A stretch of 64,000 nucleotides of DNA, taken from assembly GCA_963837925.1 (NCBI GenBank), contig CAWIPK010000006.1, positions 1,003,962-1,067,961 of the forward strand, in the 5' to 3' direction. How positions within the stretch are numbered: position 1 is the first letter of the stretch; each line of letters opens with the position of its first letter. Below the pieces are notes generated by a model. It had not been told where the DNA came from, ran no database searches, and was given only the letters and a program-made list of their open reading frames with translations. Positions 24,365 to 25,642 of the stretch are shown here, in pieces. Both the position numbers and the translations under genes were made by a program. Origin of the DNA: an uncultured Chloroflexia bacterium (GTDB lineage Bacteria; Chloroflexota; Anaerolineae; CG2-30-64-16).

Positions 24365-25642
24365 GTGCGTAATCCTTACGTGACCGGCCCTTTCGTCACG
24401 GGACGCAAGTTCTATGGCCGCAAGGAACTGATCGACTATCTGCTTCAGGGCGAGAACCCGGCCTGCTGGGTGATCGGCAATCGGCGCATCGGCAAGACTT
24501 CTTTGTTGCGCCAGTTGGAGCAACTGGCGCTCGGCGAACCGGCCCTCATGCCCTTGTTTTGGGATATGCAGGGCAGCGATTCGTATGAGCGTTTGGGGCA
24601 GTACCTGGCGGACGCGGTCAGCGAGCATGGCGAACGGCTCCAGTGCCTGACCGTACCGCCTGCCTCCCTCAGCCAGGAAGACCCGGCCGCGCTCCTGGCC
24701 GATCTGCGACGGGCCGCGGCCAGGGCCGGACGCGAGATCCTCCTGTTGTGCGATGAACCCGAAGCGCTCATCAAGATCACCCGCGCCGAGCCGGAGGCGA
24801 TGCAGCGGCTGCATCGCGAACTGACGGGGGGGGCAGGCTTGCGGGTGGTCGTGGCCTCCACGCAGGGCATATATGAGTTGCACGACGTATGCGTGGGCTG
24901 GCCCACGTCGTCGTTCCTTTCGGGTTTTGATGTGTCCCGCACGATGGGCGGGCTGGACACACCCAGCGCGCAGGCATTGATCATACAGGAACAGAGCACC
25001 AAGCCCCTCCAGGTGGCGCCGGATGTGATCGAGACGATCAGCGACTGCACCAACAACCATCCCTACATGATCCAACAGCTTTGCTCGCGTCTGTTCAACA
25101 AGGAGGGTTGGCTGCGGCCGATCGCCGCCGACGACCTCGAAGTCGACCCGGTTCTACGTGGGTTTTTCAGCATGGACTACCACTCCCTGACGCGGCCCGA
25201 GAGGCGGGTTGTGCGTGCGGCGCAGCGCAGCGGGGCAACCGCCGAGCAGGACCTCATTCAGGCCAGTGGTTGTGAGCCCGCTGAGGCGCACCGCCGGATA
25301 CGCAACCTGGAGCGTCTCGGGTATCTTCGCTGCATCTACGGGCGCTATACGATCGGCAATCAGTTCCTTGCTAACTGGCTGGCTGAAGAGCCGGTCAGCG
25401 CGGACGAGGCGCCCGCCCCCGTCTCAGACGCCGCTCTGCAGACCGCACTGGCGAATCGGCAGGAGCAAGAGGCCGGCCTTTTGCGCGCACAGCTCAACGC
25501 CCGGCGTGCACGCCTCGTCGAGCTCGAGGCGGTCCGGGCACGTGACTTGCTTGATGTTTCGCCCAAGGTACTGGCCGAGGTCGAAGAGTTACAGATAGGG
25601 ATCGGCGACCTGCGCCGGCTGCTCGACGAGGCCGTGACCTGA
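24365..25642 (+). CDS. Soluble paralogous P-loop NTPase (PF01637-like) with C-terminal winged-helix and coiled-coil
   Basis: A GTG start follows a GAGAGGAA RBS. The N-terminus FYGRKELIDYLLQGENPACWVIGNRRIGKTSLLRQL parallels the [37 protein letters not shown] of the upstream gene. Walker B is EILLLCDEPE. The C-terminal HTH-like segment reads …LTRPERRVVRAAQRSGATAEQDLIQASGCEPAEAHRRIRNLERLGYL… and is followed by a predicted coiled coil. Confidence 0.65.
   Translation: MRNPYVTGPFVTGRKFYGRKELIDYLLQGENPACWVIGNRRIGKTSLLRQLEQLALGEPALMPLFWDMQGSDSYERLGQYLADAVSEHGERLQCLTVPPASLSQEDPAALLADLRRAAARAGREILLLCDEPEALIKITRAEPEAMQRLHRELTGGAGLRVVVASTQGIYELHDVCVGWPTSSFLSGFDVSRTMGGLDTPSAQALIIQEQSTKPLQVAPDVIETISDCTNNHPYMIQQLCSRLFNKEGWLRPIAADDLEVDPVLRGFFSMDYHSLTRPERRVVRAAQRSGATAEQDLIQASGCEPAEAHRRIRNLERLGYLRCIYGRYTIGNQFLANWLAEEPVSADEAPAPVSDAALQTALANRQEQEAGLLRAQLNARRARLVELEAVRARDLLDVSPKVLAEVEELQIGIGDLRRLLDEAVT

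Follow-up and report, generated by a model that had tools for sequence, protein, structure and literature searches.

A soluble winged-helix NTPase encoded next to a membrane sensor NTPase in Chloroflexota: a candidate output partner

Genes A and B are neighbors on the forward strand of a 64,000-nt stretch of DNA from an uncultured Chloroflexia bacterium (GenBank assembly GCA_963837925.1, contig CAWIPK010000006.1, positions 1,003,962 to 1,067,961). The whole stretch is called the window, and coordinates are window positions unless a locus is named. Gene A encodes a membrane sensor with a cytoplasmic nucleoside triphosphatase (NTPase) domain, and gene B, the subject of this report, encodes a soluble NTPase with a winged helix and a coiled-coil tail. 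We consider it probable that B is the soluble output subunit, and A the input subunit, of a split two-protein STAND-like NTPase module. This is the best reading of B because the two proteins are homologous, are encoded together, occur as fusions, and divide input and output domains between their families.

Genes A and B and the spacer between them

Gene A has the following features.

21008-24193, + strand: gene A, bitopic membrane sensor-NTPase of 1061 amino acids (aa), TAG stop at 24191-24193
23189-23272, + strand: transmembrane (TM) helix of A (aa 728-755), LPAALFNAGLALGAVALGMLLTASGLTV, with the sensor outside and the NTPase inside
23345-24190, + strand: A-type cytoplasmic NTPase, nucleotide-binding domain and helical lid only
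23459-23485, + strand: Walker A motif of A, GERRIGKTT, Walker residues invariant in the A family alignment
23768-23794, + strand: Walker B motif of A, LILLIDEMD, Walker residues invariant in the A family alignment
23906-23929, + strand: invariant WDRxESPW of A, after the sensor-1 strand
24062-24070, + strand: invariant GRP motif of the A lid (GRPYRLQQ), a candidate GxP-type motif

The ectodomain of A follows an N-terminal signal or anchor (hydrophobic segment, aa 10-25) and consists of Reg_prop beta-propeller repeats in seven stretches (Pfam, E 5e-47, 152 bits). An Ig-like Y_Y_Y domain at aa 654-713 is weak (13.8 bits, below the cutoff of 26.6). On the cytoplasmic side, aa ~790-1052 have Pfam matches to ATPase_2, AAA_22, AAA_16 and nSTAND1. 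The AlphaFold2 (AF2) model of the cytoplasmic domain (predicted local distance difference test, pLDDT, 89.8) has an NTPase fold and a lid without a winged helix, and its top Foldseek matches are ORC1, Cdc6 and RFC (E ~1e-9). In the profile alignment of the two families, WDRxESPW falls opposite a gap in B, which is a hint of a predicted arginine finger that would be asymmetric between A and B.

Gene B has these features.

24353-24359, + strand: Shine-Dalgarno sequence GAGAGGA, 5 nt ahead of the gene B GTG
24365-25642, + strand: gene B, 425 aa, GTG start, TGA stop
24365-25093, + strand: nucleotide-binding domain and lid of B (aa 1-243), delimited by invariant columns, hhalign against the A family and secondary structure
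24476-24502, + strand: Walker A motif of B, GNRRIGKTS, Walker residues invariant in the B family alignment
24737-24763, + strand: Walker B motif of B, ILLLCDEPE, Walker residues invariant in the B family alignment
25049-25096, + strand: lid motif of B, TNNHPYMIQQLCSRLF
25148-25387, + strand: winged-helix domain (WHD) of B (aa 262-341), three helices and a two-strand wing
25427-25636, + strand: C-terminal antiparallel coiled-coil hairpin of B (aa 355-424), AF2 blocks with pLDDT 77-93

Translation from the GTG codon is supported by the Shine-Dalgarno sequence and by the conserved N-terminus MRNPY(V/I)TG, which is shared by 35 homologues down to 50% identity. No TM segment was found in the B protein, which agrees with its preliminary description as soluble. 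The AF2 model built from 35 sequences (pLDDT 86.3; predicted template modeling score 0.84) has a Rossmann-like NTPase fold, then a helical lid (aa 199-243) and a winged helix (helices 277-289, 294-301 and 305-317; wing strands 321-324 and 327-330), and ends in a long antiparallel helical hairpin (355-397/400-424). The winged helix and coiled coil that had been proposed for the C-terminal part are thus both present in the model. The lid carries an N-H-P motif (TNNHPYLIQ; GNHP in the wider B family), which by its position is a candidate for the GxP motif. The winged helix contains LERLGYLR and IGNQFLANWL. The coiled-coil hairpin has no Pfam match; its conserved motif is LNARRARLVELEAVRA, and residues L373, R381, E386, L387, R391 and A392 are invariant in the family alignment. 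A homotypic adaptor partner sharing this coiled coil was considered and rejected: no second protein carrying it was found in the 64-kb window or in loci L001-L091.

The spacer between the two genes has two features.

24194-24364, + strand: A-B spacer, 171 nt, unusually long for an A/B pair
24226-24252, + strand: lineage-specific GC hairpin, an AAC loop on a perfect 12-bp stem, no T tract after it

The preliminary description had placed B downstream of A on the same strand with a strong GC hairpin between them, and both points are correct. It had also suggested, from the hairpin, that the genes may be separately transcribed but co-regulated, and separate transcription is not supported: the stem is absent from three aligned relatives (L001, L002 and L003), including the closest (86% identity), and spacers in relatives are mostly tight. 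The stem occurs once in the window (chance expectation 0), and terminator prediction did not pick it up. Compared with shuffled sequences, the full spacer is only slightly more prone to fold (z -1.9). Nothing points to a regulatory role for the stem. A conserved riboswitch or terminator was rejected because of the missing T tract, the low z value and the absence from aligned relatives. In place of the hairpin, the L003 spacer (L003:7850-8000) has two copies of the direct repeat ATTGCTGGCTGTGGCCGGTCTCCTGACCGAGC. Co-transcription is argued because A-B spacers among relatives are mostly tens of nt, or the genes overlap; the arrangement points to an operon.

The spacer is also in frame. After the TAG stop of A, 57 sense codons lead in frame to the GTG of B (24191-24367), and a single readthrough would give an A-B fusion resembling the natural fusion P0329 described below. 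Stop-codon readthrough was rejected and the frame regarded as a coincidence (chance estimate ~0.08); the L001 spacer, at 70 nt, would not keep the frame.

Homology, pairing and fusion of A-type and B-type NTPases

When the profiles of the two families (35 B sequences, 26 A sequences) were compared, B 2-241 matched A ~780-1030 (hhalign probability 98.7%, E 2.4e-16, 223 columns, 26% identity), in agreement with the preliminary claim that the N-terminus of B is homologous to the NTPase of A. The three motifs quoted there recur in both proteins: FYGRKELIDYLL in B with a counterpart in A, WVIGNRRIGKTSLL in B with a counterpart in A, and ILLLCDE in B for LILLIDE in A. Between the two window proteins, the BLASTP alignment is limited to B 3-75 and A 781-859 (79 residues, 37% identity, E 7e-8), and residues 3-246 of window B align to A proteins from other genomes with E down to 1e-11. 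Reciprocal family hidden Markov models (HMMs) match all 35 B and all 26 A sequences, and they score the window proteins at 37.5 and 45.2 bits, above the best Pfam scores of 27-29 bits. These profile and HMM matches extend the similarity beyond the Walker motifs to the whole nucleotide-binding domain and lid.

The term paralogue, used in the preliminary description, is right as to homology and loose otherwise, since A and B are only ~26% identical and their duplication is ancient. Judged from their sequences, A and B are ancient paralogues in two distinct clades and not products of a recent duplication, because each has far closer relatives elsewhere. NTPases 42-60% identical to that of A are attached to other inputs, including REC-NTPase fusions, and the B core matches kinase-, sigma- and TIR-linked cores with E down to 1e-99. 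A search with the B profile retrieves 7,704 representative proteins at E<=0.001, a number that falls to 328 at E<=1e-30. The B core is conserved over profile positions 1-~350, and the ends are variable.

Co-occurrence of A and B was examined in two sets of loci. A genome scan gave 158 loci with B relatives, of which 80 from different assemblies were kept; these are labelled almost wholly Chloroflexota (Anaerolineae, Caldilineae, Litorilinea and Ca. Amarolinea). Among the 67 loci with at least 3.4 kb of upstream sequence, an A NTPase lies directly upstream on the same strand in 66, down to 34% B identity, and the propeller is also present in 65. The second set consists of 80 metagenome loci of a distant B subfamily, 59 of which have at least 900 nt upstream. 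An A-type NTPase open reading frame (ORF) lies directly upstream on the same strand in 57 of these 59 (A-HMM ~300-350 bits). The genes stand close together, at a median spacing of 17 nt, with overlaps of 4-7 nt in many pairs. The two counts bear out the co-occurrence that the preliminary description had put forward for checking.

Some loci differ in detail. An insertion of ~1.5 kb separates A and B in five loci (L039, L026, L034, L037 and L076); in Ca. Amarolinea (L039:6581-8035, - strand) it is an opposite-strand gene for a Cys/Met-metabolism pyridoxal phosphate enzyme. In L084, a gene encoding REC and an A-type NTPase overlaps the following B core by 4 nt (hhalign E 3e-76). This B core has a borderline TIR-like tail, and the adjoining DegT is 61% identical to the window DegT. 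P0285, with sigma region 4, was considered as the partner of this REC-A protein and rejected; the C-terminus gives a borderline CAP12/Pycsar TIR match instead. Another A-like gene overlaps a core-only B beside a PBP gene.

Two representative proteins, P0329 and P0313, hold both modules in the order A then B. P0329 (1874 aa) consists of a signal or TM segment, Reg_prop (166 bits), three Y_Y_Y stretches (E 3e-30), an Ig domain, a TM helix, an A-type NTPase, a 17-residue linker, a B core and an unassigned tail of ~210 aa, and it is encoded identically on two contigs. By its domain order, P0329 is the equivalent of window A and B in one chain. P0313 has an A-type NTPase, a B core and TIR_2. By the Rosetta-stone argument, such in-frame fusions suggest that the A and B modules work together. 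The P0329 locus (L172:1-4694 and 10640-14326) has genes for sugar-nucleotide enzymes nearby (NTP_transferase and epimerase/dehydratase), and it is also flanked by a 1140-aa Pkinase-WD40 protein and a 1228-aa TPR protein.

Input and output domains are divided between the two families. A-type proteins bear the inputs, which are propeller and TM, TPR and Ig, or REC; metagenome A proteins have TPR, sometimes with an Ig domain, followed by the NTPase. Their metagenome B partners are core-only (~345 aa), core with Pkinase, or core with ECF sigma. A Pfam scan of 63 long members of the B profile found added domains as follows: Pkinase, a Ser/Thr kinase domain (17/63), Trans_reg_C, an OmpR-type winged helix-turn-helix (10/63), TIR_2 (8/63), Trypsin_2 (4/63), FHA (3/63), SIR2_2 (3/63), Sigma70 region 4 (3/63) and ECF sigma (2/63). 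The coiled-coil hairpin of window B sits where relatives have kinase, sigma or TIR domains. In P0267 (627 aa), FHA is fused N-terminally to a full-length B including the coiled coil, an arrangement that links the coiled-coil version of B to phospho-threonine signaling. Pairing, fusions and the output domains on B relatives all favor the proposal of the preliminary description that B is the output partner of the sensor NTPase.

The adjacency of A and B could instead be a leftover of tandem duplication, with two NTPases acting independently and B serving, for example, as a non-signaling assembly ATPase of the neighboring glycosylation machinery. The two genes are homologous and adjacent, their neighbors are envelope enzymes, and a few genomes retain B without A. 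Pairing has nevertheless been kept over very deep divergence, despite swapped inputs on A and swapped C-terminal domains on B, with frequent start/stop overlaps and independent in-frame fusions, and we regard this explanation as very improbable.

Family placement, known systems and alternative explanations

STAND-class NTPases are recognized by Walker A (GxxxxGK[ST]) and Walker B (hhhhD[DE]) motifs, and both motifs are present in A and in B. Pfam places the two window proteins only at the margin of known families. AAA_22 (PF13401, cutoff 27 bits) is just exceeded by B (27.2) and A (27.5), and ATPase_2 (PF01637, cutoff 33.2 bits) is reached by neither (B 19.1, A 29.2). For nSTAND1 (PF20703, cutoff 27.1 bits), A scores 19.8, below the cutoff, and B has no match at E<=1. 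Relatives do pass the nSTAND1 cutoff (L084 B-like protein, 34.8 bits; L098 A-type protein, 39.0 bits; P0329, 38.6 bits), and it is reached by 22 of the 63 long B relatives. Neither window protein matches nSTAND2 (PF20702), and neither has GT4 or HEPN; weak nSTAND2 matches occur in 14/63 distant B relatives (best E 1.9e-5). A DUF234-like domain, suggested for checking in the preliminary description, was not reported on the window proteins at E<=1. Sensor repeats (TPR, WD40 or LRR) were not found on B; sensor domains sit on A or on TPR-bearing A-type relatives.

The best structural matches across the winged helix of B are 2QEN, NB-ARC and CED-4, and further matches of B are mS29/DAP3, ORC/Cdc6 and MalT, with Foldseek in agreement. 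B has the architecture of a nucleotide-binding oligomerization domain, in which a helical domain and a winged helix directly follow the NTPase fold. On the AF2 model, the winged helix is the third domain (a STAND-type WHD) of a STAND/ORC-type core. Winged helices of this kind in NB-ARC proteins and CED-4 are regulatory and do not bind DNA.

A different explanation is that B is a self-contained ATP-dependent transcription factor of the MalT/AfsR or archaeal Orc1/Cdc6 type, in which case its winged helix would contact DNA and A would have a modulating role at most. Its structural similarity to Cdc6/Orc1 and MalT is in keeping with this, some sources label homologues as Lrp-family regulators, and there are weak matches to HTH_IclR (E 0.0014-0.011), MarR and an Lrp HTH (PDB, E 0.11). 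The Pfam scores are all below cutoff, however (HTH_IclR 15.9-18.8 bits against 22; MarR 14.3 against 24.6), and conservation in the WHD falls mostly on hydrophobic residues, with a variable predicted recognition helix. Where relatives clearly have an output that binds DNA, it is a separate Trans_reg_C or sigma domain. The A-B fusions, and the near-constant presence of A beside B, also speak against an autonomous regulator. We find this explanation decidedly unlikely, and DNA binding by the winged helix, as the preliminary description had it, is not supported.

The closest described analogue of the A/B pair is a two-gene operon of paired nSTAND2 NTPases, predicted to counter invaders (Kaur, Burroughs, Iyer & Aravind 2021 eLife; PMC8195603, section 15 / Fig. 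6C). [quoted passage not shown] Both systems have adjacent STAND-type NTPase genes with variable domains on one of the two. Unlike the nSTAND2 pair, A and B both keep Walker A and Walker B, A is a membrane sensor, neither protein matches nSTAND2, and the Chloroflexota A/B locus is syntenic and not mobile.

Other known systems resemble parts of the pair. Bacteroides-type hybrid two-component sensors share with A a propeller, an Ig-like Y_Y_Y domain (marginal in A), one TM helix and a cytoplasmic transmitter; the transmitter of A is an AAA+/STAND-like NTPase instead of HisKA/HATPase_c/REC/AraC, none of which was detected in A or B. The archaeal Walker-type ATPases PABY2304 (2QEN) and SSO1545 (2FNA), of Pfam ATPase_2, are nearest to the fold of B (14-16% identity). 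In contrast to B, they lack a coiled-coil tail and are not known to have a partner NTPase; neither has a known function. Classical STANDs (NB-ARC/NLR, CED-4/Apaf-1, MalT and AfsR) have the same tripartite core and domain-swapping outputs, with nucleotide-driven oligomerization as the expected switch, and a GxP lid motif for which A and B have candidates. They hold sensor repeats and core in one polypeptide, whereas here the sensor belongs to a separate protein, with a truncated NTPase of its own that has no WHD; in this genome the sensor is extracytoplasmic. ORC/Cdc6 and RFC, the best structural matches of the cytoplasmic domain of A, are hetero-oligomers of paralogous subunits that assemble through their ATPase domains; they act on DNA and clamps, whereas no observation ties A or B to replication and A is anchored in the membrane. 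The 'Npun2340/2341' family of the MNS clade (reportedly of Leipe et al. 2004) may be related. No description of a Reg_prop/Y_Y_Y-NTPase sensor or of the A/B pair was found in the literature searched.

A and B could also be an anti-invader STAND/nSTAND system in which A senses an invader, B oligomerizes, and the coiled coil activates or recruits a toxic effector. Besides the predicted nSTAND2 counter-invader operon, this is favored by the two relatives in L084 and L098 that exceed the nSTAND1 cutoff, by the TIR_2, SIR2_2, Trypsin_2 and EAD7 domains of some family members, and by a weak PADLOC PDC-S27 match (E 1.6e-5). The PADLOC match spans residues 15-60 only, in the P-loop region, and many relatives have plain signaling outputs (kinase, ECF sigma, OmpR winged helix-turn-helix or FHA). 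The Chloroflexota version looks vertically inherited, its ILEI, DegT and GT2 neighbors recurring across Anaerolineae and Caldilineae; its sensor is extracytoplasmic and it has no recognizable effector domain. The pair has no defense-island content around it in the window. Window B and the core-only B of L112 have no match in 72,556 plasmids, and the L112 protein has none in 50,697 phages. We think an anti-invader role unlikely for this pair.

A split input/output module of A and B could work as follows. A signal from outside, plausibly an envelope glycan, would be sensed by A and would alter the nucleotide or oligomeric state of its NTPase. In response, A and B would assemble with each other in a nucleotide-dependent way, their homologous NTPase domains making the contact as in ORC, RFC and NLR oligomers. 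Co-assembly would switch the C-terminal module of B, which in Chloroflexota is a putative coiled-coil adaptor, and the likely target process would be the flanking same-strand envelope-glycosylation cluster.

Several observations weigh against such a module. B lacks an adjacent A in loci L022 and L032, an A-like gene stands alone in L090, and in L086 the order is reversed, with a B core and EAD7 upstream of an A-like gene. Some relatives carry TIR, SIR2, trypsin or EAD7, which are typical of conflict systems and not of housekeeping signaling. Distance matrices of A and B are correlated in a mirror-tree comparison (r 0.86; B-DegT 0.79), but all neighboring genes give 0.77-0.90, and the A-B value says nothing specific. 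The glycosylation cluster is the most likely target, a link drawn from synteny alone. In L032 (L032:173-2892), a long-read metagenome-assembled genome, an ILEI-domain gene is followed directly by B and gene A is absent; either the variant is natural or the assembly may be at fault, as the ORFs show frameshifts.

Genomic surroundings and significance

Genes A and B lie within a run of same-strand genes.

17972-35137, + strand: envelope-glycosylation run, ~17 kb around A and B

In the window, the members of this cluster are an ILEI-domain multi-TM protein, A, B, DegT, GT2, DUF2079, PMT_2, an Ig-like protein and a second GT2. The order of ILEI-domain multi-TM protein, A, B, DegT aminotransferase and GT2 is conserved across Anaerolineae/Caldilineae, with DUF2079 nearby.

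Two other regions of the window deserve mention. A 1345-aa ribonucleotide reductase (44693-48730, - strand) ends in a TSCPD domain and contains an intein with a LAGLIDADG homing endonuclease (Intein_splicing, aa 635-1030; LAGLIDADG_3, aa 822-876). A protein at 12682-14079 (- strand) combines Schlafen AlbA_2, HATPase_c_4 and a DeoR-type HTH, and it adjoins a 437-aa ORF (14101-15417) that no Pfam model matches at E<=1e-5.

Bacteria usually signal across the membrane with histidine kinases, Ser/Thr kinases, anti-sigma factors, chemoreceptors or one-component regulators. In the A/B pair, a glycan-sensor-type ectodomain is joined to an AAA+/STAND NTPase, and this NTPase is linked with another that bears the output. 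It is a new variant of the STAND signaling theme, and the breadth of the pairing adds to its interest. A and B may represent an unrecognized and widespread bipartite signaling class with interchangeable inputs and outputs, in which the Chloroflexota pair would be a housekeeping envelope-glycosylation sensor; we put this forward tentatively, as a possibility short of an expectation. By analogy, A-type and B-type NTPases of such a class could play the roles of histidine kinase and response regulator, a comparison that we offer with the same reserve.

If signaling by co-assembly is true, many lineages would use an NLR-like switch, split across two proteins, for ordinary signaling. The pair would also offer a first way into the function of the large, uncharacterized ATPase_2/nSTAND1-like families. 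Anaerolineae and Caldilineae are abundant filamentous bacteria of wastewater and sediments, and the pair would be a regulator of envelope glycosylation in both.

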